The position numbers were made by a program, and so were the translations under genes. This document shows, in pieces, positions 2,745 to 30,923 of a stretch of DNA of 64,000 bases; the stretch's first letter is position 1, and each line of letters begins with the position of its first letter. The notes beneath the pieces were generated by a model, which saw nothing but the letters and a program-made list of their open reading frames with translations, had not been told where the DNA came from and did no database searches. The stretch comes from Bacteroidota bacterium (GTDB lineage: Bacteria; Bacteroidota; Bacteroidia; Bacteroidales; VadinHA17): contig JAUXED010000001.1 of the NCBI GenBank assembly GCA_030618105.1, forward strand, positions 16,120 to 80,119, read 5' to 3'.

Positions 2745-3140
2745 TTATATCACTAAATGGATCTGGTAAAATTTAGACAATAAAAATATTATTATTATAA
2801 GATTAATTCCGGAAAAGAAATAATTAAATATAACCCTGTTGTTTTTAAAATTTCGTCGCAATAGTATCCCTATATTGGGTGCGAAAAGAGATAAAATCGT
2901 AAATACATAATTAAACTCATCGATTTTTTCTTTAATTTCAATCTCTAAAAACACCAGATAATAAAAGAATGATAATGCAATTAACAGGTAAGCCAGGTAG
3001 CTGAATTTTAGCATATATGTCGAATTCCTGCGCTTTTTATTTACTCTGAAGGGGCGTAAAAATACTGCCGCCAGCATAAAAATCATAGAAAACCCCGTAA
3101 TAACAAGTATGCGGGAAAGAATTTGTCCAAATTGATTCAT
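2745..3140 (-). CDS. Hypothetical small multi-pass membrane protein
   Basis: 131-aa ORF with about 4 hydrophobic segments. It is co-directional with, and 31 bp downstream of, the ROK kinase gene. I recognise no family. Confidence 0.4.
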   Translation of the reverse strand: MNQFGQILSRILVITGFSMIFMLAAVFLRPFRVNKKRRNSTYMLKFSYLAYLLIALSFFYYLVFLEIEIKEKIDEFNYVFTILSLFAPNIGILLRRNFKNNRVIFNYFFSGINLIIIIFLLSKFYQIHLVI

Positions 3141-3171
3141 TTTTCAGATGATTCAAAGACGAAAAAACTTT

Positions 3172-4164
3172 TTAAATTGAAATTTTCTTTGCATCGCCGT
3201 TTTCAATATTATTCCAAACAAGAGCACTGGCACCAAGAACAGCGGCGTTTTGAGAGTTCAATTTTGAAAGAAGCAATTTTACCTTCCCTTTATAAACTGA
3301 TAACAAATTTTCTTCCATATACTTGCGGGTTGGTTCAAATATCAAATCTTTTGCCAGTGCAAGTCCGCCAAAAAGGAAAATGGCTTCAGGATTAGTGTGA
3401 GCAACCACATCAGCAAGTTTAAAGCCGAGCATTCTGCCCGTATGTTCAAATGCTCTTATTGCAATTTTATCTCCTTCTTTGGCTGCATCGCTTATCATTG
3501 ATGCGTTTAGATCATTAAAGCTGACCCCCTTAAGAGGGCTGTCGTCTATCATATCTCCCATCAGTTTAAACAGGGTCCTTTTAATACCAGTAGCAGAAAC
3601 ATATGTTTCCAGGCATCCTTTCCTCCCGCATCCACATTGCCGGTTACTTTCTCCGGGTCTTATCGTTGTATGTCCCAGCTCCCCAGCGAAACCATCATGT
3701 CCGTATACCAATTCACCATTTACAACAAACCCGCTTCCTAAACCGGTACCTAATGTAATTACCACAAAATTTTTCATCCCTTTGGCTCCGCCATATATCA
3801 TCTCACCAATAGCTGCTGCATTTGCATCATTGGTCACTATTACCGGCAGGTTAGTAAATTCTTTGAAGAGATCAGCAAGCGGGATTATCCCTTTCCAGGG
3901 CAAATCGGCTGAATATTCTATTGTGCCTTTATTTATATTGCCCATCGGAGCTCCTATACCAATTCCTTCAACTATTATTCTATTGTTAAGGTTCCGCAGG
4001 CTAAGTCTTATTTTTTCATTCAGGGCTGCAAGAAAAACTTCTATTTCCTGATGGTCTTTTGTTGGAATTTGTCCCTGAGCCAGAAAATTTCCCTCTCTGT
4101 CCAGGATACCATAAATAGTATTTGTCCCTCCTATGTCTATGCCAATAGATACTTTCTTTTTCAC
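3172..4164 (-). CDS. ROK-family sugar kinase (glucokinase / amino-sugar kinase type), copy 1
   Basis: DIGGTN ATP-binding start, TNDANAAAIGE, LGTGLGSG, and the ROK zinc motif CGCGRKGCLE. Confidence 0.85.
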   Translation of the reverse strand: MKKKVSIGIDIGGTNTIYGILDREGNFLAQGQIPTKDHQEIEVFLAALNEKIRLSLRNLNNRIIVEGIGIGAPMGNINKGTIEYSADLPWKGIIPLADLFKEFTNLPVIVTNDANAAAIGEMIYGGAKGMKNFVVITLGTGLGSGFVVNGELVYGHDGFAGELGHTTIRPGESNRQCGCGRKGCLETYVSATGIKRTLFKLMGDMIDDSPLKGVSFNDLNASMISDAAKEGDKIAIRAFEHTGRMLGFKLADVVAHTNPEAIFLFGGLALAKDLIFEPTRKYMEENLLSVYKGKVKLLLSKLNSQNAAVLGASALVWNNIENGDAKKISI

Positions 4165-4221
4165 TGGATATCAGATATTGTATCGGTTTAAAAAAAATAA
4201 ATCCAATACAAATCTACAAAA

Positions 4222-5238
4222 TTACCCGACAATGTACTCATTCCCTACTTTTCTAGCCCTTACCGGTTTGTCAAGATCAATCCCCAGTGCTATTCCAATT
4301 TCAACTAAAACATTCCATCCGGCTGCCAGCTCAATATAATTATGGTATTTTCCGCCATCCGGGATCTTTATAGTTGGAAATAATGTTTCCCTGGCAGAAA
4401 TTGAAATAACTTTCATTCCAACACCTTTTGCAAGGCATTCTTTAATTTTTTCTTCCTCACTTTCGAAAGGTTCGACCAAAATTACAACTTCGTTTTTATC
4501 CATAATTTCTTCAATCCCATGAAGCACATATGTTCCCTCAAGAAAATCTGATCTTTTTCTTGTTATCTCGTTGGTTTTTAATGTCAGCTCTTCAGCAACA
4601 CCTGTATTTCTGCCGGCAAAATATATAATGTCTGCATTCTTTAATTGTTCAATCATTCCGGATTCGATATTTTGCTTCATGGCTTTACCAACCTGTTCTG
4701 ATAGTTCATTTAACCCTTCCATTTTTTCATCAGCAAGATGATGTATAAGGCTATCGTAAAATAAAGCCTGTTCAACAACCGATTTCGTAGCAGCAACAGC
4801 TTTCTCCTTCCCGCAATTTAATACATGTGTATCCCTGCACATACTTTCGAGTGGTGTATCGCTATTTGCTGTTAGTCCAAACAGGGCATTATGCCCACTG
4901 TTTTTGAGTTTTTCGAACAATCTGACTATTTCTTTTGTCTTACCGGAATTAGAAGCTCCAAATACAGCATAATTAGTTAAAATATATTCAAGTGCCTGTG
5001 TTGCTCCCTCTGTTGAAACCGGTAACAGGTTTCCTTTTTTCAATGCCTCATAAATAGCTCTTTTTGCCGGGAATATTCTACTGCTTCCCTCGCCGGTAAA
5101 AAACAGCCTTCCTTTTTCACGAATCGGGAGAATAAACCTTTCTGTTACTGACGGATCAAAGTTTTTTATAACCTCTGTGATTTCAAGCATCTCTTCAACA
5201 AGAGCATATTTTGAATACTTCTTATTATTCTGTTCCAT
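4222..5238 (-). CDS. SIS-domain phosphosugar isomerase/deaminase-like protein (GlmS isomerase-domain-only type)
   Basis: 338 aa with two SIS-like segments (FFTGEGSSRIFPA; VFGASNSGKTKE). Size and layout resemble AgaS / NagB-II / archaeal GlmD proteins. Confidence 0.65.
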   Translation of the reverse strand: MEQNNKKYSKYALVEEMLEITEVIKNFDPSVTERFILPIREKGRLFFTGEGSSRIFPAKRAIYEALKKGNLLPVSTEGATQALEYILTNYAVFGASNSGKTKEIVRLFEKLKNSGHNALFGLTANSDTPLESMCRDTHVLNCGKEKAVAATKSVVEQALFYDSLIHHLADEKMEGLNELSEQVGKAMKQNIESGMIEQLKNADIIYFAGRNTGVAEELTLKTNEITRKRSDFLEGTYVLHGIEEIMDKNEVVILVEPFESEEEKIKECLAKGVGMKVISISARETLFPTIKIPDGGKYHNYIELAAGWNVLVEIGIALGIDLDKPVRARKVGNEYIVG

Positions 5239-5317
5239 AGTATTTTAAATTTTTGGGGATTTAACTTTGTTGAATAATATAATTCATATAAATAAGGTTC
5301 AAAGTTACTGGTTGTTT

Positions 5318-5396
5318 TTCCCCTTTATTCCCTCTATTCCCTCTATTCCCTTTATTCCACTATTCCACTATTCCCTGCCCGTCCGGTCAGGCGGGC
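5318..5396 (-). repeat. (ATTCCCTYT)/(ATTCCACT) tandem words plus the GC-rich 24-mer (reverse orientation)
   Basis: Direct reading. Overlaps the 3' end of the PIG-L ORF. Confidence 0.85.
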
Positions 5397-6161
5397 ATTC
5401 TTCACTATATATTCTTTTATATCGTCCTGTATTTGCGGTTCCTTTTGAAATCCCCCGCCAAGATGTTGCCAAAAAATTTCTGCATATTCAATTCCTACCA
5501 TCTTACCGTAATCCACGTTTGCCTTTTTCATCATGCCAAAAAAATTATCTATTTTATGCATATGCCTCATAAGTTCCATTTGAGATTTATGATAAGTAAG
5601 CATTTCCATTTTGGTGTCAATAACAGATGTAATATCCACAAAAAAATGAGGGGGGGGTATCTCAGAGCCCAATGGATCTGATAATGTTAAAGGGGCGGTA
5701 TGATATAGCAAGGGTGTTACTTCAAGCGGTGCTTCTTTACAAGGAACATTAGGCAATGATGATATCATTGCTGTTGTTTCAATAATATTGCAGGTGGTTC
5801 TATGGTCACTATGATAATCCATTGGCAGATGAGTAAATATAATTCCCGCCTTTACCTTCCTTATCAATTCAAGGGCTTTAATTCTTAATTCTTCAGTATC
5901 AAACAGGAAGCCATCTCTGCCATTAAAGCAATAATAGTCAGCATCAAGTACATCAGCCGCTTTACGGGCTTCGGTTTTTCTTGTTTCAATAGTTTTTTGC
6001 TCCGTTGAATTTATCCCTCCCATTCCACCTGCAGTCATAGTGGCAATAACAATCTTGTATCCTTTGTCCTTTAAAAGCTTCAGGGTTCCTGAGGCAAAGG
6101 CTTCCGTATCATCCGGATGTGCATGAAAAGCCAGCACAACTTTATTAAATTTTCGTTTCAT
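5352..6161 (-). CDS. PIG-L/LmbE-family N-acetylglucosaminyl deacetylase
   Basis: AFHAHPDDTE motif near the N-terminus and a later YHSDH motif. The last ~15 codons are read from intergenic-type repeat DNA. Confidence 0.8.
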   Translation of the reverse strand: MKRKFNKVVLAFHAHPDDTEAFASGTLKLLKDKGYKIVIATMTAGGMGGINSTEQKTIETRKTEARKAADVLDADYYCFNGRDGFLFDTEELRIKALELIRKVKAGIIFTHLPMDYHSDHRTTCNIIETTAMISSLPNVPCKEAPLEVTPLLYHTAPLTLSDPLGSEIPPPHFFVDITSVIDTKMEMLTYHKSQMELMRHMHKIDNFFGMMKKANVDYGKMVGIEYAEIFWQHLGGGFQKEPQIQDDIKEYIVKNARLTGRAGNSGIVE

Positions 6162-6198
6162 GTGTCTATAATTTAATTTTCAACGGTCACATAGCCAG

Positions 6199-6241
6199 TC
6201 CCGACATTGTCGGGATAGCTCACCCCGATTTTTTTCGGGGT
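6199..6241 (-). other. Two adjacent stem-loops (TCCCGACATTGTCGGGA; ACCCCGATTTTTTTCGGGGT) between the PFK and PIG-L genes
   Basis: Perfect 7-bp and 6-bp stems. The second belongs to a CCCCGAAAAAA(N)CGGGG family also seen at 26321-26336. Confidence 0.6.
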
Positions 6242-6251
6242 TCGGTTCATT

Positions 6252-7478
6252 CTATCCTTGTTTTATTGTTTTATTTTCCAGTTCAACAAACTCGGGCAGT
6301 TTTCCAATTAACGGTTTAATATACTCAATGAATTTTTTATTGACGAAATTGCCTTTTTTATTGAAATATTCCCGAGGCATTGGCTTTGCTTTAATAGCTA
6401 CATCACTGAGTAATACTTTGGTATATTTAATTTTATATGGATTATCCGATTTCCTTTCCAGGGCGATCATATATCCCGACCGGCCTTTTTCAGCCAGCTT
6501 AACCGCTTCAATACCACAAATAAAAGCTTCTCTACGGTCAAGATTCACAGTTCTGTCAGCATCACACATAATAAGCGATTCTGTAATTTGAAATTCTCCC
6601 CTGTATCCATATTCATCTGCTATCATTCTATGAAGGTTCATCCCAACGCTTGATCCACCCATTGCTCCAAATTCAACATTATTAAATTTGTCCTGTGTCT
6701 TTGATGCGCTTACCGGGGTACCATCTTCAAATTTCAATCCTTCTCCGCAAACAACTGAAACCCAACCATATTTATCAATGCATAACCCTGCATCTTTCAG
6801 GAATTCTTCCTTGTTGAAATAAAATTCGGGGGTATATATTAAATGCGGCGCATCTTCTTTTTTTCGTTTTGCCAATGCTGTTGCCGCAGCAAGCCATCCC
6901 GCATTCCTTCCTATTGTCTGATAAATTACAAATTTATCCACCTTTTGCATATCCCGTGCAAGAATTCCCGCATGCATAACATTCAGAATATTTGTTCGTG
7001 CAGCAGAGGGAAAGCCCGGTGTATGGTCTGTGCCATACAGATCGTTATCAACAGTTTTGGGTATTCCTGTTCCAACTATTTCATAACCATTATCATTACA
7101 GTATGATTCAATTCTGTTGATAGTATCCATTGTATCATTCCCGCCAATCATAAAAAAGTACCTGATATTATATTTTTTAAGCATTTTCATTATTTTGGGA
7201 AAATCCTGCTGCTGTAATTTATGTCTTGATGAACCAAGAGCAGAAGAGGGAGTAGTCCTTAGCCCTGAGATAATTCTATCAGTCTGATTTCCAAGATCAA
7301 TAATTTTCTCCTGCATAAAACCCTCAATTCCGAATTTCATGCCATATATATCCGCAATTTTTCCCGATTTCCGGGTTTTTTCTATCACACCTGCAAGACT
7401 GGCATTTATAACAGCTGTGGGTCCGCCCGATTGTCCTATAATAGCATTGCTTTTCATGTTGATTTTTATTTTAGTCAA
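6252..7478 (-). CDS. 6-phosphofructokinase, PPi-type signature (GGND / PKTVDND)
   Basis: PFK family motifs SGGPTAVINA, IGGNDTMDT, IPKTVDNDL. Lys in PKTxDND and Asp after GG(N) match PPi-dependent enzymes. Confidence 0.85.
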   Translation of the reverse strand: MTKIKINMKSNAIIGQSGGPTAVINASLAGVIEKTRKSGKIADIYGMKFGIEGFMQEKIIDLGNQTDRIISGLRTTPSSALGSSRHKLQQQDFPKIMKMLKKYNIRYFFMIGGNDTMDTINRIESYCNDNGYEIVGTGIPKTVDNDLYGTDHTPGFPSAARTNILNVMHAGILARDMQKVDKFVIYQTIGRNAGWLAAATALAKRKKEDAPHLIYTPEFYFNKEEFLKDAGLCIDKYGWVSVVCGEGLKFEDGTPVSASKTQDKFNNVEFGAMGGSSVGMNLHRMIADEYGYRGEFQITESLIMCDADRTVNLDRREAFICGIEAVKLAEKGRSGYMIALERKSDNPYKIKYTKVLLSDVAIKAKPMPREYFNKKGNFVNKKFIEYIKPLIGKLPEFVELENKTIKQG

Positions 7479-7553
7479 ATATTCATTAGCTATATATTTT
7501 TGTTTCTGCTACTAACTTTTAAAAATAATTTATTTTGTGGAGAAAAAAAAACA

Positions 7554-8207
7554 TCAACAAAATTTAATTTCTCCAAAAAAATCAGGCTGGTGAAAATCAG
7601 GGTTGTTGGTTTCAACCCTGTTCCATGTTAAATAATGCATTTCGGAAAGTTTGTCACCGCATTTATAAAAATTAGCCCTGAATTTTTTTCCTTTTAATTC
7701 GGATATTTGATGGTCAATAAAGGATTCCAAAGGAATTGCTATTGTCAGCTCCCAGTAAAACTTTCCTGATCTTTCTTCAAATGGCTGATTTCCGAGGGTG
7801 GAAATCCTTCGGATTCCTTCAATCACTCCCGGATCTAAAATTTTGCTGTCATTACGCGATCTGCCCTTACCAAGTAAACATGTACCAATACAATTAAATT
7901 CAAAATTGTAATAAACACCATCGTTTGAAGGAGAAACAAAAAACTCAACACAACTATCTTCACACATCATCTGATTTGATTTATCATGTTTTGCCCGTAT
8001 GTAATTTTCAGTTACATAGTACTTCAGATACAACTCCTTTTCTCTATAGGCAATATTAAATCTTACATCCGGTTGATATGAAAAATCCTTCCAGGGCAAC
8101 TGGTTAATTTCATAACCCTGTCCCAGTTCATCCAATAGTTTTGATATTTTTTCCAGGGCTGGTTTTTCATCGTCAATATCCAATCGCTTAACTTTTAAGC
8201 TTTTCAT
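7554..8207 (-). CDS. Carbohydrate-binding family 9-like (DOMON-like) domain protein
   Basis: 217 aa. The C-terminal pattern FRANFYKCGD...HYLTWN...PDFHQPDFFG resembles CBM9-like proteins. Family assignment is by recollection only. Confidence 0.45.
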   Translation of the reverse strand: MKSLKVKRLDIDDEKPALEKISKLLDELGQGYEINQLPWKDFSYQPDVRFNIAYREKELYLKYYVTENYIRAKHDKSNQMMCEDSCVEFFVSPSNDGVYYNFEFNCIGTCLLGKGRSRNDSKILDPGVIEGIRRISTLGNQPFEERSGKFYWELTIAIPLESFIDHQISELKGKKFRANFYKCGDKLSEMHYLTWNRVETNNPDFHQPDFFGEIKFC

Positions 8208-8218
8208 ACAGGTGCCAA

Positions 8219-9205
8219 CTATTTATTCAATATTTCATGCCATGCAAGTGCACTCGCCCCCATCACTGCACCTTTACTTTCGGGTATTTCGGATGGTAAT
8301 AATTTTACCGTTCCCTTAAACATAATCTGAAGTGTTTCTTCCATATATTTCCTGGTGGGTTTGAAAATCAGGTCTCCCGCATTTGCCAGTCCTCCAAAAA
8401 GAAAAACAGCTTCCGGGCTTGAAAAAGCTACTGCATTAGCAATTGACAGTGCCAGTATTTTGGCAGTATCATCAAAAGCTTCAAGTGCAATTTTGTCACC
8501 TTCATTTGCAGCTTCAGCAATTTGTTTTGAATCCAGGTCTTCGCAGGGTATTTTTCGCAATTTGCTTTCATCTCTTCTTTTACCAAGAAGTTCGTGCGTT
8601 GTTCTTACTAATCCGGTTGCTGACGCATAGTTTTCCAAACAGCCTTGTCGCCCGCATCCACAATCTCTTCCTCCGGGTTTCATAATAATATGTCCTATTT
8701 CCCCTGCAAATCCTGTATGTCCGTAGAGAATTTCACCATTAATTACAATTCCGCTTCCAAGACCTGTTCCAAGAGTATATTCTATAAAATGCTTCATGCC
8801 CCGGGCACCTCCAAAAATCATCTCACCCATAGCTGCCGCGTTTGCATCATTGGTGACTACAACCGGAACGTCAAAATATTTTTTGAACAAATCAGCCAGT
8901 GGTATAATCCCTTCCCAGACAAGATTGGGTGGATGTTCTATTGTTCCATTATAGTAATTCGTGTTTGGTGCTCCAATCCCAACTCCCATGATTTTTACTT
9001 CTTCACTTAAAGATTCTTTCAGCTTTTGCATGGTAAAATAGCATGCCTCAACAAAATCTTCAACAACCGGATATTTTCTGGTTGACACTGTGTTTTCAGC
9101 AAGTATTTGTCCTTCTCTGTCTACAATTCCAATAACACTATTGGTTCCACCAATATCGAGTCCGTATGTTACTTCTTTCATGTTTACAATAATTTTATTA
9201 TCCAT
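8219..9205 (-). CDS. ROK-family sugar kinase, copy 2 (paralogue of 3172-4164)
   Basis: DIGGTN, TNDANAAAMGE, LGTGLGSG, CGCGRQGCLE. Long stretches are shared with copy 1. Confidence 0.85.
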   Translation of the reverse strand: MDNKIIVNMKEVTYGLDIGGTNSVIGIVDREGQILAENTVSTRKYPVVEDFVEACYFTMQKLKESLSEEVKIMGVGIGAPNTNYYNGTIEHPPNLVWEGIIPLADLFKKYFDVPVVVTNDANAAAMGEMIFGGARGMKHFIEYTLGTGLGSGIVINGEILYGHTGFAGEIGHIIMKPGGRDCGCGRQGCLENYASATGLVRTTHELLGKRRDESKLRKIPCEDLDSKQIAEAANEGDKIALEAFDDTAKILALSIANAVAFSSPEAVFLFGGLANAGDLIFKPTRKYMEETLQIMFKGTVKLLPSEIPESKGAVMGASALAWHEILNK

Positions 9206-9280: not shown

Positions 9281-9288
9281 CAAATTTA
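9281..9288 (-). promoter_or_regulatory. Candidate -7 box TAAATTTG upstream of the ROK copy 2 / sugar cluster
   Basis: CAAATTTA on the + strand, 76 bp from the ATG at 9205. Confidence 0.3.
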
Positions 9289-9358: not shown

Positions 9359-9391
9359 AAAAAAAACAGCTCCGATTCGGAACCGGAGCTG
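9359..9391 (-). terminator. Rho-independent terminator downstream of the M16 peptidase gene
   Basis: On the minus strand: CAGCTCCG-GTTCCGAAT-CGGAGCTG followed by T8. Confidence 0.75.
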
Positions 9392-9404
9392 CTTAAATTA
9401 TTTT

Positions 9405-12338
9405 CTAGTGCCCGAATATCTCTTCGAGTTTTATTTCTCTGATCGTACCCAGTTCTTTCAGCATGTTCATATCCACCGCATCTCTGTCGCCCAGTACCAG
9501 GAAAGTATAATTCTTCCCCGCGATATGTTCCATAAAGAATTTATCCAACTCATCCAGGGTCATCGTTTTCATAGCTTCATATACATCTTTCCTTGTATCA
9601 TAATTCACACCACGATCGAGATTTCTAATATATGTAGAATATATATTTGTCTTGGTAATCCGTTCCGATTCTATCTTTTTCATGATTGATTCTTTTGCCA
9701 GGTTAAATTGTTTTCCGGCTTTGGGCATATCATTCATCAGGTCGAGCAGTGCATGTATTGCCATTTGTAGCTTATCTGCCTGGGTTCCCACAAATCCGTA
9801 AGTAAAATGAGACCGTTCCTGTTTAGCTGGAATATTGAAAGCGGCAAACACCGAATAAGCCAGTGCTCTTGACTCTCTGATCTCCTGAAACACTATGGAT
9901 GACAATCCTCCACCAAAATATTCATTAAATAATGTTGCCTCGGGCAATAACGACATGTTCAGTTTTTCATCCTTAGACATCATAATTATGTTTACCTGAA
10001 CCATATCATAATCTACAAAATAGACTTTGTTTTCATTGGTTTCCAGTTCAACAAATTTCACAGGGTCAGGGTAAGTTTTTGGTTCTTCAGGAACTTTATG
10101 ATGCTTTTCAATAACCTGCATAATTTTTGTTAACGGCATGCTTCCATAATAAAAAACTTTGTGTTTATACGAATACAGGTCCTTTAGTAACTCTGTCAGT
10201 TCTTCCGGATCCTGGGCTTTCAGGTTATCTTCAGAAATAAGGTGTGTATAGGGTGATTTTTCTCCGTACATACCATAATTAAACAACCCACCCCACAGGA
10301 TGGAAGATTTACTCAGTTTCCTGTCCTTTCGCTTTTTCAAAATTCCTTTAACATACTCATCGTAGGCATTTTTATCGGGCTCTACATTTGCAATAACATG
10401 TTCAAGTAATTCCAATCCGGGATCAAGGGACTTTTGCAGTCCGGTAATATATACATAAGACCGGTCGTTCCCTGCATAAACACCCATACTTATACCCAGC
10501 TTGAAAAACTCCTGTTGCAGTTCGGCAGGCGTGTATTTTTCAGTCCCCAGAAAAGGAAGATAATTTACAGCAAGCGGAAGTTTCAGATCATGATTTTTTC
10601 CCATTTCCAGAATATACTGCAAAGTAAAAAGTTCATTTGTTTTATTCTCAATATATTCAATCTTTATCCCGTTATCCAGGTGATTTTGTACAATCGCTTT
10701 TTCAAAATCCACAAATACCGGTTTTATCGGCTCGGGTTGATCTTTAATAAACTCTTTATAGAATTCCGATTGCTTATCGCGGTTAATGGGGATGGGGGTA
10801 ATTTCAGGTTTTTCCACTTTTACCAGTTCATCGTTTGCTCCTGTCCGCTTATATACTACCACATAATTATCATTGTAATGTGTTTTCGCAAAATTCATCA
10901 GTTCTTCTTTGGAAATACTTTCGAGTTCATCCAGGAATTTTACTCTGTCAACGTAAGGAATATCCTTTATAAACGCATCGATATACCCCCAACTCCGGCT
11001 GAAATTATTCTCATTCCGGCGTATCCCGGATAGTTTCATATCATTAATCACCGCCTCGATCATCCACTCTTCAAACTCGCCATTTTTTATCTTTTCAACT
11101 TCATCAAGTAAAAGGTTTTTAACTTCCTCAAGTGTCTGCCCCTGTCTTGGTATTCCATAAAACCTGTGAATACTATGATCTCTCATGAAATTCGGACTAC
11201 ATCCTGCATTTATTACTTTTTGTTGCTGAACAAGGTTAAGGTCAATCAGTCCTGCCTGTCTATTGCTCAGTATCATATCTATCAGCGTTACATATCTGTA
11301 ATCTTCACTGTTATCGGCATCAAAGCGGTAAGCGAACATCAGATTGGCGGCTGATGGCCCGGTAATTTCACAAACAACCGGGCCTATAACCGGTTCTTCT
11401 TTGGGTTGGTTAATTTCAGGTAATTCGCCTGGTTCCAGTTTTCCAAAATATTTATCCAGCACTTTAATTGTCTTTTCATAATCCAGATCGCCGGATAATG
11501 CTATAGCTATATTATTGGGAACATAAAATGTTTCGGCGAATTCATAAATATTGACCATAGAAGGATTTTTAATATGTTCGGGCAACCCTATCACATCCCT
11601 GCCATACGGATGATTCGGAAACAAGTTTTTCATCAGCATCTTGTTAGCCCGGCTGTTATCACTATCCTGATACATGTTGAATTCTTCATATACGGTTTCC
11701 AGTTCGGTATGAAAGATCCGCAGAACCATATCAGCAAAACGTTCCGATTCAAGACGTGCCCATTTTTCCAATTCGTTAGATGGAATATTATTGATATATA
11801 CAGTAAAATCGTATGAGGTACCGGCGTTAGTCCCTTTCGCACCAATGCTTGAAGCCATTTTATCATATTCGTTTGTAGCTACATATTTCGCCGCTTCGTA
11901 TGATAAGCTGTCAATTTTGTAATACAACACCTCTTTCATTTTCGGATCTTCAGTCTCCCGCCTCTTTTCAAACATATCGGATATTTCCTGCAGGAGTATT
12001 TTCTCTTTTTCCCAGTCGAGTGAGGCAATTTCATCTGTTCCTTTGAACATCATGTGTTCAAAATAGTGGGCTAACCCCGTGGTTTCGACAGGATCATATG
12101 TTGAACCGGCATGGACCCCGGTAAGGGTTTGTATCCTGGGTTCGTCCTTATTAACAGAAAGATAAACCTTTAACCCGTTTTCAAGAGTGTAAATACGGGT
12201 TTTAAGAGGATCGTTTGTAATGGTTTCATACGAATACCCATTTTCATCAATGCTTTCTTTTACTTTATATTTTTCCCCTGCGCACCGGGAAAACAAAATA
12301 AAGACAAGCAACAGAATTAAAGATTGTAGTGTTTTCAT
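9405..12338 (-). CDS. M16 (insulinase/pitrilysin) family zinc peptidase, lipoprotein-type signal
   Basis: 977 aa. Has the inverted zinc motif HYFEHMMFKGT and an N-terminal signal ending FSRC. Confidence 0.85.
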   Translation of the reverse strand: MKTLQSLILLLVFILFSRCAGEKYKVKESIDENGYSYETITNDPLKTRIYTLENGLKVYLSVNKDEPRIQTLTGVHAGSTYDPVETTGLAHYFEHMMFKGTDEIASLDWEKEKILLQEISDMFEKRRETEDPKMKEVLYYKIDSLSYEAAKYVATNEYDKMASSIGAKGTNAGTSYDFTVYINNIPSNELEKWARLESERFADMVLRIFHTELETVYEEFNMYQDSDNSRANKMLMKNLFPNHPYGRDVIGLPEHIKNPSMVNIYEFAETFYVPNNIAIALSGDLDYEKTIKVLDKYFGKLEPGELPEINQPKEEPVIGPVVCEITGPSAANLMFAYRFDADNSEDYRYVTLIDMILSNRQAGLIDLNLVQQQKVINAGCSPNFMRDHSIHRFYGIPRQGQTLEEVKNLLLDEVEKIKNGEFEEWMIEAVINDMKLSGIRRNENNFSRSWGYIDAFIKDIPYVDRVKFLDELESISKEELMNFAKTHYNDNYVVVYKRTGANDELVKVEKPEITPIPINRDKQSEFYKEFIKDQPEPIKPVFVDFEKAIVQNHLDNGIKIEYIENKTNELFTLQYILEMGKNHDLKLPLAVNYLPFLGTEKYTPAELQQEFFKLGISMGVYAGNDRSYVYITGLQKSLDPGLELLEHVIANVEPDKNAYDEYVKGILKKRKDRKLSKSSILWGGLFNYGMYGEKSPYTHLISEDNLKAQDPEELTELLKDLYSYKHKVFYYGSMPLTKIMQVIEKHHKVPEEPKTYPDPVKFVELETNENKVYFVDYDMVQVNIIMMSKDEKLNMSLLPEATLFNEYFGGGLSSIVFQEIRESRALAYSVFAAFNIPAKQERSHFTYGFVGTQADKLQMAIHALLDLMNDMPKAGKQFNLAKESIMKKIESERITKTNIYSTYIRNLDRGVNYDTRKDVYEAMKTMTLDELDKFFMEHIAGKNYTFLVLGDRDAVDMNMLKELGTIREIKLEEIFGH

Positions 12339-12364
12339 TGTATAAAATTTAAAGGGTTAATTAA

Positions 12365-14209
12365 TTATTCGGTTTCCAAATCCCAGTTGATTTCCAAATC
12401 CCAGTTAGCTCTGACATCCAATTCTTTTTTGAAAAAAATCACTTTTTCAGGTTGTCTTTTCTCCTCATAGTTTCCTGTATCCCATTTCCCGTTTTTATTC
12501 CTGTCATAAATTGCTTTTAGCCTGTATTTTCCCGGGTGTAAAAAAGAAAATTCAACCCGGTTATTTTTCCAGCCGGTTTTTTCCTTACTTACTTCGCCCT
12601 TATTATCAAACAATTGAATAATCAGGCTATCCGGTATTTCTTTTAAAGTTACAATGATTTTACCATAGTAATCCAGTTTACGCATTCTGAAATCCAGCAG
12701 AAGGGTATCGTTACTGTAACCATATATGCCGGTAAAAGCCCCGGGTTCAAAAAACAATTGGTATTTGGCAGCTTCCTGCCATTTTGTACTAAATCTGAAC
12801 TTCCGGATTTGCAGGGAATCTTTTTCCAGGATATACCCGGTATTGATTTTTAATGAATCCTCAAAAAGAAACAGTTTGATTTTTGAGGTATCTATCATCT
12901 TTACCGGTGTTTCTGTCTCAATAACAATTTTCTGATTTAATTCAACTTGAGCGTTTTTTCTTATCGACGGAGTTAGTACAAGTGTTTTCTCTGTTTTGTC
13001 AGCAATCTCTCCGTTGCCTCTTTTTTTTCCGGTAGGAGCTATGTATCTTAATAAAGAGGTGTCGGTAAACGAAATATAGTTCCCTGTAGAATCTTCTTTC
13101 ATGTATTCCAACTTAAGGGTTACTAAATCAGAGCCGGACACAATAGTATCTGTAATCCAAATATTTACAGTGTCTCCAATAACGAATTTCTCCTTGATAA
13201 ACCATTCGCTTTTTGTATCAATATCTATCGGTGTTATCTCAAGTTTTCTCTCTTTTAATGGCATATTAAAAACCAGTTGTATATATTCCCTGGTTTCTCG
13301 TGTCGAATTTTTAAGGTATTGAATTGAATGGTCTTCCATAAAAAGAAATAACCGGGCATCCGGTTTTATTTCTTCTTTGTCAATTTCTGCTATATCGGCG
13401 CCTATTATATCAGCATTTGTTGTATCAGCATCTGTCGTGTCTGTATCTATTGTGTTTATATCTATTGTGTCAGCACCTATTGTATCTTTTCTCATAGTAT
13501 CCGCAAAAAATTCAGGGGGGGCGCTAACTAACAGGGTTGAATCCAGAAATGCAAATGCCTCGCCAGCCTGGTCAAAATAATGATTGCGATTGCCGTCTTT
13601 TATTGCAAATATCCTGAATGTATCTGCCTTAACATTATTTATCCTGAATTTTCCTTCTTTGTCCGGTTTTCCAATATACAAAGGAGGGGTTGTTTGTGGA
13701 ATGGTATCATCCAAAAGATCATATAATAACACCTCCACCCCTTCTTCTTCCGGCTCAAGATCAAACGCCCTTAGTACAATGCCATTTACTGATAATGAAT
13801 CCAGCCGGTTTCCTGTAGAAAAAACAAACTCGTAATCTTCAATCGGATTTCCCTCATTGTTATCTATTATGGCATCATAAAAAGAAAAAGTATAAGTTGT
13901 ATTTTTCTTTAGTTCCTGTTTACCCAGCTCAATAATAATACTCTTTCCCCTGACAAATATTTCAGGTTTTTCATCAAGCGGTGGTGAAATAACCAGTTTT
14001 TGTTGCAGATTATCAAAACGTACAAATTCATTAACCTCTATTTCTATTTTGTCTGATCCAAAATTCTTTGAATAATTATTCGGAGTGCTCTCAATTATTT
14101 CAGGTGGCAAAATATCTTTTTTGCCTCCGACCGGCGATCCGACTCGTGCACAATTTATTGTACTTAAAAGAATAATTGAGATTAATATCAGGAAAACCGG
14201 TTTGTTCAC
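12365..14209 (-). CDS. Ig-like (SbsA/Big_5-type) domain lipoprotein
   Basis: Signal plus lipobox (LLSTINC). The N-terminal PPEIIESTPNN...IEIEVNEFV resembles Big_5 domains. Lies 26 bp upstream of the M16 gene on the same strand. Confidence 0.6.
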   Translation of the reverse strand: MNKPVFLILISIILLSTINCARVGSPVGGKKDILPPEIIESTPNNYSKNFGSDKIEIEVNEFVRFDNLQQKLVISPPLDEKPEIFVRGKSIIIELGKQELKKNTTYTFSFYDAIIDNNEGNPIEDYEFVFSTGNRLDSLSVNGIVLRAFDLEPEEEGVEVLLYDLLDDTIPQTTPPLYIGKPDKEGKFRINNVKADTFRIFAIKDGNRNHYFDQAGEAFAFLDSTLLVSAPPEFFADTMRKDTIGADTIDINTIDTDTTDADTTNADIIGADIAEIDKEEIKPDARLFLFMEDHSIQYLKNSTRETREYIQLVFNMPLKERKLEITPIDIDTKSEWFIKEKFVIGDTVNIWITDTIVSGSDLVTLKLEYMKEDSTGNYISFTDTSLLRYIAPTGKKRGNGEIADKTEKTLVLTPSIRKNAQVELNQKIVIETETPVKMIDTSKIKLFLFEDSLKINTGYILEKDSLQIRKFRFSTKWQEAAKYQLFFEPGAFTGIYGYSNDTLLLDFRMRKLDYYGKIIVTLKEIPDSLIIQLFDNKGEVSKEKTGWKNNRVEFSFLHPGKYRLKAIYDRNKNGKWDTGNYEEKRQPEKVIFFKKELDVRANWDLEINWDLETE

Positions 14210-14237
14210 AGTAAATATAATGTTGTGGTGTAAACAG

Positions 14238-14245
14238 CAAACTTA
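14238..14245 (-). promoter_or_regulatory. Candidate -7 box TAAGTTTG for the Ig-like lipoprotein / M16 operon
   Basis: CAAACTTA on the + strand, 29 bp from the ATG at 14209. Confidence 0.35.
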
Positions 14246-14431
14246 CAAACTTTACAAATATTTTCACCAATAATACATGAGGAGATATTAATATTTTTTA
14301 GTTTTGCCGTTAATATTAGTGTTTGTCTATAATGTAAGAATAATAGAAATATTTTGAATATCGAATTATTCATCATAACAACTGTGTAATTAATGTATTG
14401 TCAAGTACGAAACATAAGTTAATAATTCATT

Positions 14432-15238
14432 ATGACACTTTTAGATATACCCTGGAATGTAAATCCTGAAATTTTTAACATTGGTAAATTTGCTATTCGC
14501 TGGTACGGACTCCTGTTTGCTTCCTCTTTTTTCTTTGGTTACCTTATTATGGCTAGGTTTTTCAAAAAAGAAAAAATACCGGAAGAAGTTCTTGACAGGC
14601 TAACTTTATATATGGCACTTGGTACTATAATCGGAGCCCGTTTTGGACATTGCCTGTTTTATGAACCTGGTTATTATCTCGCTCATCCTCTTGAAATACT
14701 TAAGATATGGCACGGTGGTCTTGCAAGTCACGGTGCCGGAATAGGCATTTTTATCGCGTTATATCTGTTTTCTAAAAAATCAAAAAAATCTTATCTGTGG
14801 ATTCTTGACAGGATAGCTGTTGTAGTGGCTCTTTCCGGTTTATTTATCAGAACAGGAAATCTGATGAATTCAGAAATATACGGTGTTGAAACCAGCCTCC
14901 CCTGGGGGTTTGTTTTCCTAAGGAACGGAGAAACATTGCCAAAACACCCAACACAGATATATGAGGCACTTGCTTACTTTTTAATCTTTATTCTCCTTTA
15001 CTTCATATATAAAAGAAACCAGGGGGTATTTAAATCCGGATTATTATTCAGCTTGTTCATGATATTTGTTTTCACTTTCAGGTTTTTTGTTGAATTTATA
15101 AAAACCGATCAGGTAGCCTTTGAGTCGGGAATGATGTTAAATATGGGTCAGTGGCTTAGTATTCCATTTGTTCTGTTTGGTATTATTCTGTTCATTTTTG
15201 TTCTGAAAAAACCAATGCCCGAAAAATTAGACATTTAG
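14432..15238 (+). CDS. lgt: Prolipoprotein diacylglyceryl transferase
   Basis: 268 aa polytopic protein with WYGLLFA, GGLASHG and NSEIYG-type Lgt motifs. Confidence 0.9.
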   Translation: MTLLDIPWNVNPEIFNIGKFAIRWYGLLFASSFFFGYLIMARFFKKEKIPEEVLDRLTLYMALGTIIGARFGHCLFYEPGYYLAHPLEILKIWHGGLASHGAGIGIFIALYLFSKKSKKSYLWILDRIAVVVALSGLFIRTGNLMNSEIYGVETSLPWGFVFLRNGETLPKHPTQIYEALAYFLIFILLYFIYKRNQGVFKSGLLFSLFMIFVFTFRFFVEFIKTDQVAFESGMMLNMGQWLSIPFVLFGIILFIFVLKKPMPEKLDI

Positions 15239-15462
15239 CTTAAACAAATAATTTAGCCGAATTGCTTCGTGCTTCTCGTCCGCATGCTGTCGCTGAATCT
15301 TTAGCATAGGCGCCCGAAGCGGAACGCAAAGGAGGATTAATTTTAATTACGTTATTAATAACGTTATTCTTTTATACAAAACCATCGTAAGTCAAAAAAT
15401 CTTAAATTACAGAGGATTTATTAACTTAAAAATTTCTATAAAACCAATAACCCGGATTTTAT

Positions 15463-15558
15463 ATGACAAAAACTACTGAAAAAAGATTGATTATCTTTCT
15501 AACCGGAGTACGTTTGCTTTTAGTATGCGGTATTAGTGTTTGGTTCATTGTTTTTTAG
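15463..15558 (+). CDS. Possible 31-aa single-TM micro-protein (MTKTTEKRLIIFLTGVRLLLVCGISVWFIVF)
   Basis: ATG-to-TAG ORF below the ORF-track cutoff in an otherwise empty 430-bp spacer. It has one hydrophobic helix. No other support. Confidence 0.2.
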   Translation: MTKTTEKRLIIFLTGVRLLLVCGISVWFIVF

Positions 15559-15633
15559 AAGCTTTATATTAGCAGCATAGCGCTATAAAATATTACCTTA
15601 TTCTATAGGTGTAGTTAATTAAGTTTAATTAAA

Positions 15634-15641
15634 TATATTTG
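15634..15641 (+). promoter_or_regulatory. Candidate -7 box TATATTTG
   Basis: 26 bp upstream of the ATG at 15667. Confidence 0.4.
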
Positions 15642-15666
15642 CATTAAACCGATTTGATATCAAGTA

Positions 15667-16581
15667 ATGAAAAAAGATAATATACAACCTGTTGTTGAAA
15701 AGGAACCTTTAAAACCCGGAATTACTATACTCATTATTTCTGTAGTAGTTCTTTTCCTGGCTTTTAGCGGACTTATTTACCTGTATTTTAACCAAAAAGC
15801 AGACATGGTTGAGATGGAGATTGTGCTAACTGCTGAAAAAGATTCGCTTACAAACGAATTACAAGAAATGATTATTGGTTATGATACACTGAAAACATCG
15901 AATGATACTCTTAACATAAAACTTCAGGAAGAACAAAATAAAATAAAAAGGCTTATCCAAATACAGGCTTCCAATGCCCGGAAAATACAGTTATACAAAA
16001 AAGAACTGGGTACTCTTCGTAGTGTTATGAAAAGTTATATTGTTCAAATCGACTCTCTTAATACAAAAAACAAACAGTTAATAGCCAGTAATGCTGAATT
16101 TCAAATAAAGCTTGAATCTGCCGAACGAACAAATAAACAATTGTCTGAGATAAAAGATGAACTCTCATCTAAAGTTGAAAAAGCTTCAGTTATTATGGCT
16201 AAAAACATTCACGCTGCGCCATTGAGTAACAGGGGAAAGGAAAAAGACAAAATTGATAAAATAGAAAAAATCCGTGTCTGTTTTACACTAAGGGAAAATC
16301 CTATAGTTGAACCGGGAAAAATGGACATTTATCTGCGAATAATGCGTCCCGATTCCCTTGTATTAGCTCTTTCTGCTGAAAATATTTTTACATTTCAGGA
16401 TAAACAAATGATTTATTCTGCAATGAGAACTGTTGAATACCTTAATAAAGATATTGATGTGTGCATTTATTTCAACGACAATGAACATTTTATAGTTGGA
16501 AAATATTCTGTTGATCTCTTTCTTAAAAATACCAAAATAGGCACAACCACTCTTACCCTCAGGGAGTCGGGTTGGTTTTAA
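15667..16581 (+). CDS. Hypothetical membrane-anchored coiled-coil protein with a C-terminal beta-rich domain
   Basis: 304 aa: N-terminal TM helix, ~130-aa heptad-rich segment, then a distinct C-terminal domain. A TATATTTG -7 box lies 26 bp upstream. Confidence 0.6.
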   Translation: MKKDNIQPVVEKEPLKPGITILIISVVVLFLAFSGLIYLYFNQKADMVEMEIVLTAEKDSLTNELQEMIIGYDTLKTSNDTLNIKLQEEQNKIKRLIQIQASNARKIQLYKKELGTLRSVMKSYIVQIDSLNTKNKQLIASNAEFQIKLESAERTNKQLSEIKDELSSKVEKASVIMAKNIHAAPLSNRGKEKDKIDKIEKIRVCFTLRENPIVEPGKMDIYLRIMRPDSLVLALSAENIFTFQDKQMIYSAMRTVEYLNKDIDVCIYFNDNEHFIVGKYSVDLFLKNTKIGTTTLTLRESGWF

Positions 16582-16621: not shown

Positions 16622-17911
16622 ATGAAAATAGGTGTTATTATTGGTAGAATTGGTGGGGTTGACGGGGTAGCACTTGAAGCAGAAAAATGGATCCAGGTAT
16701 TAAAAAAAATGGGGCATGAAATTTTTATTCTTTCCGGTCAGTTTCAGGATTGGAAAATTGATCGCACACACGACACCCTGGTTCCCGAAATGTCATTCTT
16801 TTCGCCTGAAAGTTTCTGGGGGCAAAAAAAGGCTTTTTTTCATCCCGACACCAATACTGCAGATTTGATTGAACATGTTTCACTTTACTCCAGAATTATC
16901 TCCGAAAAAATTATCAAGTGGGCAATCCATAATAAAATTGATGTTCTTATCTCCGAAAACGCTTCTGCACTTCCCTCCCATCTTGAAATGGGTATAGGAA
17001 TTAAACTGGCTGTTGAAACCCTGGGTCTTCCTACTATTACACATGATCATGATTTTGCATGGGAAAGAGGTGACAGATATATTTCTCCACATAAAGAAAT
17101 TAATAAGTTCGTTGAAAATGCATTTCCCTTGAGGCTTCCTAACACATACAATGCTGTTATTAATTTAAATGCGCAAAAAACCCTTAAAGAGAAATATAAC
17201 AGAAGTTCTATTGTTGTTCCTAATGTAATGAACTTTAATGTTCCGTTCGGAAAAATAACCTCAAAAAATAAAAATTTGCGAGCCGATCTGGGCCTTGAAG
17301 AAGATGATTTTTTGCTTTTTCAGATAACACGTATTGTTGAGAGAAAAGGAATTGAAGTTGCTATTAACCTTATTGACAAACTTGATAATAAAAAAATAAA
17401 GCTTGTTATTACCGGAAATTATAAAGATGATGAGGGTAGTATATACTATGATATGCTTGTCAACCTGATCCATGAATTGAAAATAAGCAGACAAATTATT
17501 TTTGCTTCTCATATTATACACAATAAGGGTCTTTCAGGAGACGGAAGTGATACACGCTATTCACTATCCGATGCTTACGCAAATGCATCTGCTTGTACAT
17601 ATTTCAGTACTTATGAGGGTTTTGGTAATGCTTTTATTGAAGCTGTTCTGGCAAAACGTCCTATTTTTGTTAATAATTACAAGCCCGTATACTGGCCTGA
17701 TATCGGCAGTAAGGGATTTAAAGCAGTAATGCTTGAAGATAATGTACTTACCGATGATGCTGTTGAACAAATGAGAGAGGTAATATTTAATAAAACACTA
17801 AACCGCGAAATTGCTGAATTTAATTATACTCTCGGAAAAAAGCACTTTTCTTACGAGACACTTGAACAAAAATTGGAGGAGTTGCTTGAAGAAGTAAGTA
17901 GTAAAAAGTAA
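16622..17911 (+). CDS. GT4-like retaining glycosyltransferase (GT-B fold)
   Basis: 429 aa with an E-x7-E motif (YEGFGNAFIEA). The N-terminal GGVDGVALEAEKW and HDHDFAWERG motifs are shared with the N-terminal half of the 1405-aa protein. Confidence 0.8.
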   Translation: MKIGVIIGRIGGVDGVALEAEKWIQVLKKMGHEIFILSGQFQDWKIDRTHDTLVPEMSFFSPESFWGQKKAFFHPDTNTADLIEHVSLYSRIISEKIIKWAIHNKIDVLISENASALPSHLEMGIGIKLAVETLGLPTITHDHDFAWERGDRYISPHKEINKFVENAFPLRLPNTYNAVINLNAQKTLKEKYNRSSIVVPNVMNFNVPFGKITSKNKNLRADLGLEEDDFLLFQITRIVERKGIEVAINLIDKLDNKKIKLVITGNYKDDEGSIYYDMLVNLIHELKISRQIIFASHIIHNKGLSGDGSDTRYSLSDAYANASACTYFSTYEGFGNAFIEAVLAKRPIFVNNYKPVYWPDIGSKGFKAVMLEDNVLTDDAVEQMREVIFNKTLNREIAEFNYTLGKKHFSYETLEQKLEELLEEVSSKK

Positions 17912-17973
17912 GTAGTAGGAAGGAAGAGGTGATGAGGTGATGAGGTGATGAGGTGATGAGGTGATGAGGTGAT
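17888..17973 (+). repeat. (GTARRNA)n heptamers followed by (GGTGATGA)x6 octamers, overlapping the GT gene stop
   Basis: Direct reading. Lies between the convergent GT and hemW genes. Confidence 0.9.
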
Positions 17974-19140: not shown

Positions 19141-19188
19141 TATTATTCCATTATTCCCCTTTATCCCCTTTATCCCCTTTATCCCCTC
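19141..19188 (-). repeat. (CCCCTTTAT)x3 9-bp repeat encoding the GDKGDKGDKGE tail of the 1405-aa ORF
   Basis: Direct reading. Confidence 0.85.
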
Positions 19189-30821: not shown

Positions 30822-30923
30822 CCTCATCACCTCATCACCTCATCACCTCATCACCTCATTGGTCTTTTATTCTGCATCTTCCTTACTCAACTACTTAACT
30901 ACTCAACTATTAAACCACTCAAC
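30822..30923 (-). repeat. (TCATCACC)x4-5 and the YACTCAAC word block downstream of pheS (purine/G+T-rich on the pheS sense strand)
   Basis: Direct reading. Confidence 0.9.

Follow-up and report, generated by a model that had tools for sequence, protein, structure and literature searches.

Several routes for the degradation of amino sugars have been described. The chitin and N-acetylglucosamine (GlcNAc) pathway of Thermococcales consists of the deacetylase Dac, the exo-beta-glucosaminidase GlmA, an ADP-glucokinase and the glucosamine 6-phosphate (GlcN-6-P) deaminase GlmD, and that of Shewanella and Xanthomonas consists of NagP, NagK, NagA and NagB-II. Bifidobacterium processes lacto-N-biose and galacto-N-biose (LNB/GNB) by using NahK, a GalT-type uridylyltransferase and a GalE-type epimerase, and the Aga pathway of Escherichia coli and Shewanella combines a kinase or phosphotransferase system with AgaA, AgaS, tagatose-6-phosphate kinase and KbaY. 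For the amino-sugar pathways of gut microbes, a survey from 2017 listed the non-orthologous replacements NagB1/NagB2, NagK1/NagK2 and AgaS/AgaI, and none for NagA (PMC5583593). Here we describe a cluster of seven genes at positions 2745–9205 (minus strand) of a 64-kb stretch of DNA from a Bacteroidota bacterium (contig JAUXED010000001.1, positions 16,120–80,119; hereafter the window), which probably encodes another such route.

The seven open reading frames (ORFs) lie in a row and share one direction. In order of transcription they encode a ROK-family sugar kinase (ROK_a), a CBM9-like protein, a pyrophosphate (PPi)-type phosphofructokinase (PFK), a PIG-L/LmbE-family deacetylase, a SIS-domain protein, a second ROK kinase (ROK_b) and a 131-amino-acid (aa) protein with four predicted transmembrane segments. 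Counting from the end of ROK_a, the gaps between ORFs are 11, 75 (96 with a later PFK start), 90, 113, 57 and 31 bp. A preliminary description of this DNA had reported seven co-directional minus-strand genes with gaps of 11–113 bp and had named the domains of the first six products; the ORF coordinates agree, and all of these assignments hold in Pfam and NCBIfam scans. The first six products lack a hydrophobic N terminus and predicted transmembrane segments, except that residues 302–320 of the SIS protein form a borderline internal segment, and are thus probably cytoplasmic.

We judge it probable that the cluster is a cytoplasmic catabolic operon that delivers an N-acetyl-hexosamine to glycolysis via non-standard enzymes. 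The sugar is most likely GlcNAc from chitin-like or N-glycan-like material. In this scheme, GlcNAc would first be imported, although the cluster in the window lineage carries no transporter gene. The LmbE/PIG-L zinc enzyme would then remove the N-acetyl group, and a ROK kinase would add a 6-phosphate either before or after deacetylation. The double-SIS enzyme would convert GlcN-6-P to fructose 6-phosphate (Fru-6-P) and ammonia, and the co-encoded PPi-type PFK would form the 1,6-bisphosphate. The second ROK could phosphorylate a companion hexose or hexosamine, for example mannose, glucose, glucosamine (GlcN) or GlcNAc. Glucokinase-like ROK kinases often accept GlcN, and the substrates of known LmbE enzymes are GlcNAc derivatives that carry no phosphate, which by analogy slightly favours the order seen in Thermococcales, wherein the free sugar would be deacetylated before GlcN is phosphorylated. 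An amino-sugar catabolic role had been put forward in the preliminary description, and it is supported by the family and fold of the SIS protein, the relatives of the PIG-L protein, the co-conservation of the genes and the existence of variant loci with GH20 and NahK genes.

The nearest known logic is that of the Thermococcales Dac/GlmD and proteobacterial NagB-II pathways, and variant loci carry the bifidobacterial NahK entry step. As in Thermococcales, a PIG-L/LmbE deacetylase and a putative double-SIS GlcN-6-P deaminase are encoded in one cluster. Among solved structures the PIG-L protein is closest to Dac proteins, and by fold the SIS protein best matches Pyrococcus proteins of GlmD type. 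Unlike in Thermococcales, the host is a bacterium, similarity is low (roughly 22–23% identity for the SIS protein and 73 bits for the PIG-L protein), ROK kinases stand in for the ADP-dependent kinase, PPi-type PFK and CBM9-like genes are added and a GlmA-type glucosaminidase is absent. Indeed, the window cluster includes no glycoside hydrolase (GH) that could be the exo-beta-D-glucosaminidase partner of a Dac pathway, and the GH92, GH125 and GH20 genes of related loci do not belong to known glucosaminidase families. The likeness to the Shewanella and Xanthomonas pathway lies in the SIS-type deaminase used in place of classical NagB, the retained catalytic Ser, Ser, Glu and His residues, and a related major facilitator superfamily (MFS) permease in some related loci. 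The cluster differs from that pathway in having a PIG-L enzyme and no NagA, in an SIS protein that falls well below the NagB-II equivalog score (46 versus 430 bits) and does not keep the allosteric arginine, and in its PFK and CBM9-like genes.

The cluster is widely distributed and uncharacterized, and neither this combination of genes nor the function of the CBM9-like family PF16011 or its structure 4JPQ was found described in full-text literature searches. If the proposed role is correct, amino-sugar catabolism in many uncultured Bacteroidales of sediment, peat and freshwater uses enzymes that are missed by standard annotation. Because such annotation seeks nagA and nagB, metagenomic surveys would then under-call the turnover of chitin, peptidoglycan and N-glycans. 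The Dac/GlmD logic of Thermococcales would also be extended to bacteria, with the addition of an energy-saving exit step linked to PPi, and the widespread PF16011 family, for which structure 4JPQ has been solved, would gain its first functional handle. Six small soluble proteins suffice for testing all of these claims.

Proteins of the cluster

The putative LmbE/PIG-L zinc de-N-acetylase (positions 5352–6161, minus strand, 269 aa) scores 86.2 bits on PF02585 (cut-off 28.2). Members of the LmbE-like superfamily carry an HXDD motif and a further His, which serve in metal binding and as a general base, with a spacer of 97–148 residues between them (PMC4101496). The window protein has H15-P-D17-D18 and H117-S-D-H120 separated by 102 residues, which is inside the family range; HPDD is present in all 60 orthologues and the 102-residue spacing in 59 of them. 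Its closest solved relatives are the diacetylchitobiose deacetylases of Thermococcales (8bgn, 3wl4 and 3we7, at 62–73 bits), wherein Dac 8bgn (73 bits) ranks ahead of TT1542 (56 bits) and BshB (49 bits). A 9-bp tandem repeat (5321–5376) overlaps the 3′ end of the gene and adds to the protein a tail of roughly 13 aa not found in the orthologues.

The adjacent gene (4222–5238, minus strand) encodes a 338-aa double-SIS protein that matches PF01380 at 51 bits and is a putative sugar-phosphate deaminase/isomerase related in type to the GlmS isomerase. Its best NCBIfam matches are NagB-II (46 bits), GlmS (42 bits) and GlmD (41 bits), and the AgaS model gives no match at E ≤ 0.01. A profile made from 22 homologues ranks the Pyrococcus furiosus GlcN-6-P deaminase, Shewanella NagB-II and Pyrococcus horikoshii PH0510, which we take to be a GlmD-family member, first among PDB entries. 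Scored with the SIS-family profile, GlmS leads the E. coli references at 15.8 bits, followed by FrlB and then AgaS at 7.0 bits, as compared with 32 bits for GlmD/NagB-II.

The AlphaFold model of this protein, which has a predicted local distance difference test (pLDDT) score of 89.3, adopts a double-SIS fold like that of GlmS isomerase domains. Among its 50 best PDB neighbours in Foldseek, 49 are annotated as GlcN-6-P deaminases or synthases, and the last (3g68) as a ‘putative phosphosugar isomerase’; none is a phosphoglucose isomerase (PGI) or phosphomannose isomerase (PMI). The top matches are 2dec and 2cb0, with template modelling (TM) scores of 0.72–0.78, and GlmS isomerase domains and 7kqa come next. 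The list is led by PH0510, whose PDB deposition names it a hypothetical protein, and by the GlcN-6-P deaminase of P. furiosus.

Also consistent with this family placement are the residues known to act in phosphate binding, ring opening and enolization in SdNagBII/GlmS, namely Ser52/303, Ser97/347, Glu227/488 and His243/504 (PMC10201695). Residues S52/S53, S96, E224 and H240 of the window protein align to Ser52, Ser97, Glu227 and His243 of SdNagBII and are invariant in the 22 homologues. Equally invariant is K330 in a C-terminal P-x4-K motif, which is presumably the equivalent of GlmS Lys603. We rejected an assignment to KpsF or GmhA, given a KpsF score of 18.9 bits against a cut-off of 203.7 and fold neighbours that are GlcN-6-P enzymes. 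Thus, when set against the families that the preliminary description had singled out for comparison (GlmD, NagB-II, AgaS, KpsF and GmhA), the protein groups with GlmS, GlmD and NagB-II by catalytic residues and fold, and not with KpsF/GmhA or AgaS. To judge from its sequence, it is a separate subfamily of GlmS-isomerase-type enzymes, and the sequence and model together suggest that the conversion of GlcN-6-P to Fru-6-P is its most likely chemistry.

The two kinases bracket the other enzyme genes. ROK_a (8219–9205, minus strand, 328 aa) is glucokinase-like and forms a paralogue group of its own with a conserved position, and ROK_b (3172–4164, minus strand, 330 aa) belongs to a distinct conserved paralogue group. 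PF00480 matches the two at 224 and 205 bits and spans each protein entirely, leaving no room for an N-terminal DNA-binding domain such as the helix–turn–helix. The zinc motif CxCGxxGCxE is present in both, as CGCGRKGCLE in one copy and CGCGRQGCLE in the other, and the two proteins are 54% identical over 320 residues, which bears out the earlier view that they are clear paralogues. Their best PDB matches are the glucokinases 3vgk (ROK_a, 167 bits) and 2qm1 (ROK_b, 157 bits), and both remain below the TIGR00744 glucokinase cut-off (224.9 and 236.7 versus 260.35 bits). In related loci where ROK genes flank the cluster on both sides, the upstream copy always best matches ROK_a and the downstream copy ROK_b, indicating that these are old paralogues with set positions.

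The PFK gene (6252–7478, minus strand) encodes 408 aa when read from a TTG codon, and comparison with orthologues makes an ATG at 7457 the likely true start. The protein matches PF00365 at 149 bits and exceeds the cut-off of the diphosphate-PFK subfamily NF010675 (PRK14072; 404.7 versus 273 bits), with the PPi-PFKs 3hno (232 bits) and 3k2q as its best structures. PPi-dependent enzymes are separated from ATP-dependent ones by an Asp at the position of E. coli residue 104 and a Lys at that of residue 124. The cluster PFK carries GGNDT (N114/D115) and PKTVDND (K141), wherein D115 and K141 align to E. coli G104 and G124. These motifs are found in 62 and 65 of 66 orthologues, respectively. The earlier designation of this protein as a PPi-type enzyme therefore stands on both the Asp/Lys signature and the NF010675 score. 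At the predicted Fru-6-P site, K or Q occupies the position of R162 and the Arg of RGEFQ probably corresponds to R243 (E. coli numbering); on this alignment Fru-6-P is plausible but not secure as the substrate.

A second PFK of the PfkA family is encoded at 61397–62602 (minus strand, 401 aa) of the window. Its identity to the cluster PFK is only 28% (185 residues), and it shows GGDD and PKT, a PPi-type signature, while scoring just above the cut-off of an NCBIfam ‘ATP-dependent PFK’ subfamily (259 versus 253 bits). Since both proteins bear the PPi signature, the organism has two PFKs that look PPi-dependent.

The CBM9-like protein (7554–8207, minus strand, 217 aa) matches PF16011 (CBM9_2) at 242 bits and is cytoplasmic by prediction. 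It is 41% identical (178 bits) to BACUNI_03838, whose structure 4JPQ has no assigned function. Its model (pLDDT 92.8) superimposes on 4JPQ with a TM score of 0.94 and on the CBM9 structures 7nwn and 1i82 with scores of 0.60–0.68 (0.68 when target-normalized), and has the CBM9 beta-sandwich fold seen in modules that bind reducing-end sugars. This modelled fold suggests that the protein probably binds a free reducing sugar. The gene, for whose product the preliminary description proposed no function, is a core conserved member of the cluster, being kept in versions with ROK genes and in versions with NahK.

CBM9_2 homologues also occur outside the cluster. In gut Bacteroides and in contigs derived from gut or rumen, they close GH loci that resemble polysaccharide utilization loci (PULs), in which GHL10 is accompanied by GH9 or by two GH92 genes with GH20 nearby. 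Two of these are metagenome contigs (L088 and L090) with close BACUNI_03838 relatives, whose inferred host is probably Bacteroides or Prevotella. In both contigs the PF16011 homologue is the last gene, following a GHL10 (PF02638) protein, and a GH20 gene is nearby; one is a SusC/SusD PUL with GH9 and the other contains two GH92 genes and a pair of extracytoplasmic function sigma and anti-sigma factor genes. The pairing of GHL10 with CBM9_2 may represent a functional unit. SusC/SusD genes were seen only beside the gut Bacteroides homologues, and PUL membership of the cluster was rejected because neither the window cluster nor its inspected close relatives contain SusC/SusD.

Conservation and variant forms of the cluster

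Related loci (labelled with L-numbers) were found by a profile scan with the SIS family in species-representative genomes, and their flanks were read to 10 kb on either side. Among 8000 candidates scored, 5693 clusters are relatives of the SIS protein at E ≤ 1e-5, and at least 584 species-representative genomes carry a relative. The best 80 genome matches are all metagenome-assembled genomes (MAGs), mostly labelled Bacteroidales or Bacteroidota, with no cultured host among them. One of the loci (Bacteroidota CSMAG_1436, L008) is 97% identical and comes from essentially the same organism.

Synteny was counted by tblastn with the seven window proteins against the related loci, of which 59 have enough flanking sequence. 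The PFK gene is beside the SIS gene in 53 of the 59, making this the most persistent pair. The PIG-L and CBM9_2 genes each lie near the SIS gene in 48 loci, ROK_b in 46 and ROK_a in 41, and the complete six-gene order is kept in 28. The PFK–SIS pair furthermore recurs amid unrelated surroundings in loci labelled Spirochaetes, Acidobacteriota and Brevinema. The outer flanks are diverse, with about 25 upstream and 24 downstream neighbour families, the common ones being a Big_5 protein upstream (33 of 69 loci) and the small membrane protein downstream (42 of 75). The six enzyme genes therefore recur as a unit, as would be anticipated from the preliminary description. The gene grouping is not due to chance, since it recurs in dozens of species-level genomes; the coincidental grouping that had been entertained as an alternative can be set aside.

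The 131-aa membrane protein (2745–3140, minus strand) has no Pfam or NCBIfam match. Its gene is present in 49 loci overall and lies directly downstream of the cluster in 42 of 75, but versions flanked by GH92 and those of NahK type do not have it. Because it tracks lineage synteny and is missing from other versions, its membership in the module is uncertain. An approximately 190-bp purine-rich repeat tract follows this gene in the window.

Neighbouring genes in other lineages are informative about the likely substrate. A sugar MFS transporter resembling gluP, fucP and NagP adjoins the cluster in seven loci (immediately upstream in six), a GH125 gene precedes the MFS gene in five and a GH92 gene follows the cluster immediately in six. 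In two loci (L022 and L082), a homologue of the N-acetylhexosamine 1-kinase NahK (273 bits to 4ocu) takes the place of the ROK kinases while the PFK, PIG-L, SIS and CBM9_2 genes are retained. L022 also contains an SSS transporter and a GH20 hexosaminidase, and L082 contains GalT-like, GFO-type oxidoreductase, LacI and epimerase genes. The NahK homologue, together with the GalT-like and epimerase genes that L082 places beside its PFK–PIG-L–SIS–CBM9_2 core, recalls the LNB/GNB pathway. The resemblance is confined to these variant loci and does not extend to the window; unlike in that pathway, no GH112 phosphorylase was found, and PIG-L, SIS and PFK proteins are present instead of NagA and NagB. 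Collectively, the MFS, GH, NahK and PUL-like contexts tie the core to glycans rich in N-acetyl-hexosamine and mannose. The absence of transporter and GH genes noted in the preliminary description is thus true of the window cluster but not of the module generally, given the MFS, GH92, GH125 and GH20 genes of related loci.

The module had also been proposed to be independent of NagA and NagB. Searches with E. coli NagA and NagB probes and Pfam found neither gene in the 64-kb window, and within 10 kb of the related loci they found no nagA and only one nagB (in L053). The proposal consequently agrees with the gene content of the window and, for nagA, of the related loci, but not with that of L053, where an insert (11109–15849) of HMGL-like, classical nagB and DUF4954/DUF6819 genes separates SIS from ROK_b. 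Read from its gene content, this insert would back the link to amino sugars yet also show that the module is not always NagB-independent. The same scan of the window identified an adenine deaminase gene at 42383–44020.

The DUF4954/DUF6819 protein of L053 (661 aa) has a left-handed beta-helix and GlmU-like hexapeptide repeats. In five loci labelled as Spirochaetes (L024, L030, L035, L042 and L085), a DUF4954 protein that is about 24–30% identical to the L053 copy follows a minimal PFK–SIS–ROK unit, making DUF4954 the second uncharacterized family linked to the SIS gene. One of the five (L042) has KDPG-aldolase and DHDPS/NanA-like genes upstream. In another locus, on a Spirochaetia chromosome (L063), a 760-aa MGH1-like GH of the mannosylglycerate/glucosylglycerate hydrolase type is encoded at 6242–8524, directly upstream of PFK–SIS.

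Alternative explanations

Several observations weigh against a catabolic operon of the kind proposed above. To our knowledge, all characterized LmbE enzymes use non-phosphorylated GlcNAc glycosides, such that a PIG-L protein standing in for NagA would be unprecedented. The SIS protein falls far short of all curated equivalog cut-offs (46 versus 430 bits for NagB-II, NF046059; 41.4 versus 580 bits for GlmD, NF041128), and Arg211 of the allosteric GlcNAc-6-phosphate (GlcNAc-6-P) site of NagB-II aligns to its Ala208. The nagB product of L053 is 60% identical to E. coli NagB, and its presence within the cluster implies either redundancy or another substrate for the SIS enzyme. In the cluster PFK, the segment that corresponds to E. 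coli H249-I-Q-R252 (YLQR in 3hno) reads as a conserved ESL(I/N)M(C/S), although the alignment of this segment is uncertain; this divergent Fru-6-P motif and the second PFK elsewhere in the window suggest that the cluster PFK may act on another ketose phosphate. Finally, the related loci all come from MAGs, and about half of them have their flanking genes in common, which means that shared ancestry and lineage synteny account for some of the conservation.

In a more radical version of the proposal, the LmbE enzyme is a NagA analogue that acts on a phosphorylated N-acetyl-hexosamine, the CBM9-like protein is an obligatory new component and the GGNDT-bearing PFK uses a ketose phosphate other than Fru-6-P. 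The deacetylase substrate in that case could be GlcNAc-6-P in ROK-type clusters and GlcNAc-alpha-1-phosphate in NahK-type clusters, where GlcN-1-phosphate would enter via the housekeeping GlmM, and the CBM9-like protein could act, for instance, as an anomerase, in substrate delivery or as a regulator. All three parts lack precedent, and we think it unlikely that they hold jointly.

Other explanations give the cluster, or its PIG-L protein, a different role. In one of them, which we regard as improbable, the cluster is a general hexose-entry module wherein the ROK kinases act on glucose or mannose, the SIS protein is a PGI- or PMI-like isomerase and PFK forms fructose 1,6-bisphosphate (FBP), with PIG-L as an add-on whose product would go to a NagB encoded elsewhere. 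PFK–SIS with a nearby ROK is indeed the minimal persistent unit, occurring without PIG-L in loci labelled Spirochaetes and Acidobacteriota; several loci have genes for a sugar MFS transporter and for alpha-mannosidases (GH92 and GH125) at their flanks, L053 has its own nagB, and the Glu/His/Lys catalytic set is common to SIS-type isomerases generally. However, the SIS protein matches no PGI or PMI model or structure at the thresholds used, its structural neighbours are overwhelmingly GlcN-6-P enzymes (49 of 50), its C-terminal P-x4-K presumably matches GlmS Lys603, PIG-L adjoins SIS in 48 of 59 loci and the variant loci bring NahK and GH20. An Aga-like pathway for N-acetylgalactosamine (GalNAc) or galactosamine, in which a GalNAc kinase (ROK) and a GalNAc or GalNAc-6-phosphate deacetylase (PIG-L) supply an AgaS-like SIS enzyme that deaminates galactosamine 6-phosphate to tagatose 6-phosphate for a tagatose-6-phosphate kinase (PFK), is a less credible candidate again. 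It would account for a dedicated PFK, with a divergent sugar-phosphate motif and in close linkage with SIS, in a window that has a housekeeping PFK elsewhere; it parallels the agaS–kbaY logic of E. coli by placing a kinase, a deacetylase, an SIS deaminase/isomerase and a ketose-6-phosphate kinase in one cluster, and NahK, which L022 and L082 encode, accepts GalNAc as well as GlcNAc. Yet, of the three SIS-family references from E. coli, AgaS scores lowest with the SIS-family profile (7 bits versus 15.8 for GlmS, and 32 for GlmD/NagB-II), leaving the SIS protein farther from AgaS than from GlcN-6-P enzymes and without an AgaS family match. The deacetylase belongs to another superfamily, no tagatose-bisphosphate aldolase gene is present in the cluster or in the inspected related loci, and the GalT-like and epimerase genes of L082 suggest conversion to the gluco series.

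The remaining two explanations assign biosynthetic roles. An anabolic or salvage function, to which we give only a slim chance, would run PPi-PFK and SIS in reverse (FBP to Fru-6-P to GlcN-6-P with ammonia) while PIG-L and the ROK kinases recycle cell-wall GlcNAc for the envelope. PPi-PFK and GlcN-6-P deaminase reactions are both reversible, several loci place the cluster beside Polysacc_synt flippase and GT4 genes, and the window lineage has neither a transporter nor a GH gene in its cluster. On the other side, other lineages have genes for periplasmic GHs and sugar importers next to the cluster, the co-conserved genes include none for a glycosyltransferase, GlmM or GlmU, and the formation of UDP-GlcNAc from salvaged GlcNAc needs no deacetylase. 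Very improbable is the idea, raised in the preliminary description, that the PIG-L protein is BshB or another deacetylase of thiol or glycoconjugate biosynthesis that sits in the cluster by coincidence. Bacteroidota make bacillithiol, and BshB1 (TIGR04001) is the top-scoring NCBIfam match of the protein; the score is nonetheless well below the cut-off (109.1 versus 182.5 bits), as is that for BshB2 (51 versus 195 bits), and Dac is nearer than BshB among solved structures (73 versus 49 bits). PIG-L is moreover beside SIS in 48 of 59 loci across differing flanks, NahK-type loci included, and no BshA- or BshC-like gene is found among the roughly 40 window ORFs scanned with Pfam, the only trace being a 20-bit partial BshA match in a 1405-aa protein. 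We rejected BshB identity on the grounds of the sub-cut-off score, the PDB ranking and the synteny with SIS.

Transcription signals and other features of the window

An intrinsic-terminator-like hairpin with a 14-bp stem and a T-run (9364–9394, minus strand) ends the upstream M16 peptidase transcript and, as predicted from sequence, marks the 5′ boundary of the transcription unit of the cluster. It is the sole convincing terminator of a scan that was otherwise near chance level (6 sites versus 5.4 expected) and that detected no minus-strand terminator-like site within the cluster. Between the hairpin and ROK_a, TAAATTTG (9281–9288, minus strand) matches TAnnTTTG, the -7 promoter motif of Bacteroidota, and precedes the start codon of ROK_a (ATG at 9205) by about 76 nt. 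This motif is not enriched across the window (79 matches versus 99.6 expected), and the box is therefore positional evidence only. Further TAnnTTTG boxes in the PIG-L/SIS and SIS/ROK_b gaps make internal promoters possible. A sigma-70 promoter scan was at chance level (30 versus 26.1 expected), and no Rfam family reached its gathering score in the whole window.

Short tandem repeats with periods of 7–9 bp occur at many gene ends and in many spacers of the window, for example at 2550–2736, 5321–5376, 17889–17973, 30822–30924, 42193–42231, 46419–46470, 48598–48643, 50266–50350 and 53779–53897. The repeat units include GAGGTGAT, CCTCATCA, AAGAAGT, TACCCAG, TCATCTTC and CCCTCTATT, and some recur at several sites.

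The window has 52 ORFs that are 100 aa or longer; about 40 of these, including every one of plausible size, were scanned with Pfam, and NCBIfam was applied to the first ten ORFs and to two glycosyltransferase genes. The 1405-aa protein (19151–23368, minus strand) has a glycosyltransferase region of GT4 type and, at its C terminus, a NAGPA phosphodiester-glycosidase domain, and a 429-aa glycosyltransferase encoded nearby (16622–17911, plus strand) resembles mannosylglucosylglycerate synthase (218 bits versus a cut-off of 640). Together with a fragment of an OtsA/OtsB fusion at 36–1100, the make-up of these two proteins hints at the synthesis of a compatible solute or an unusual glycoconjugate.

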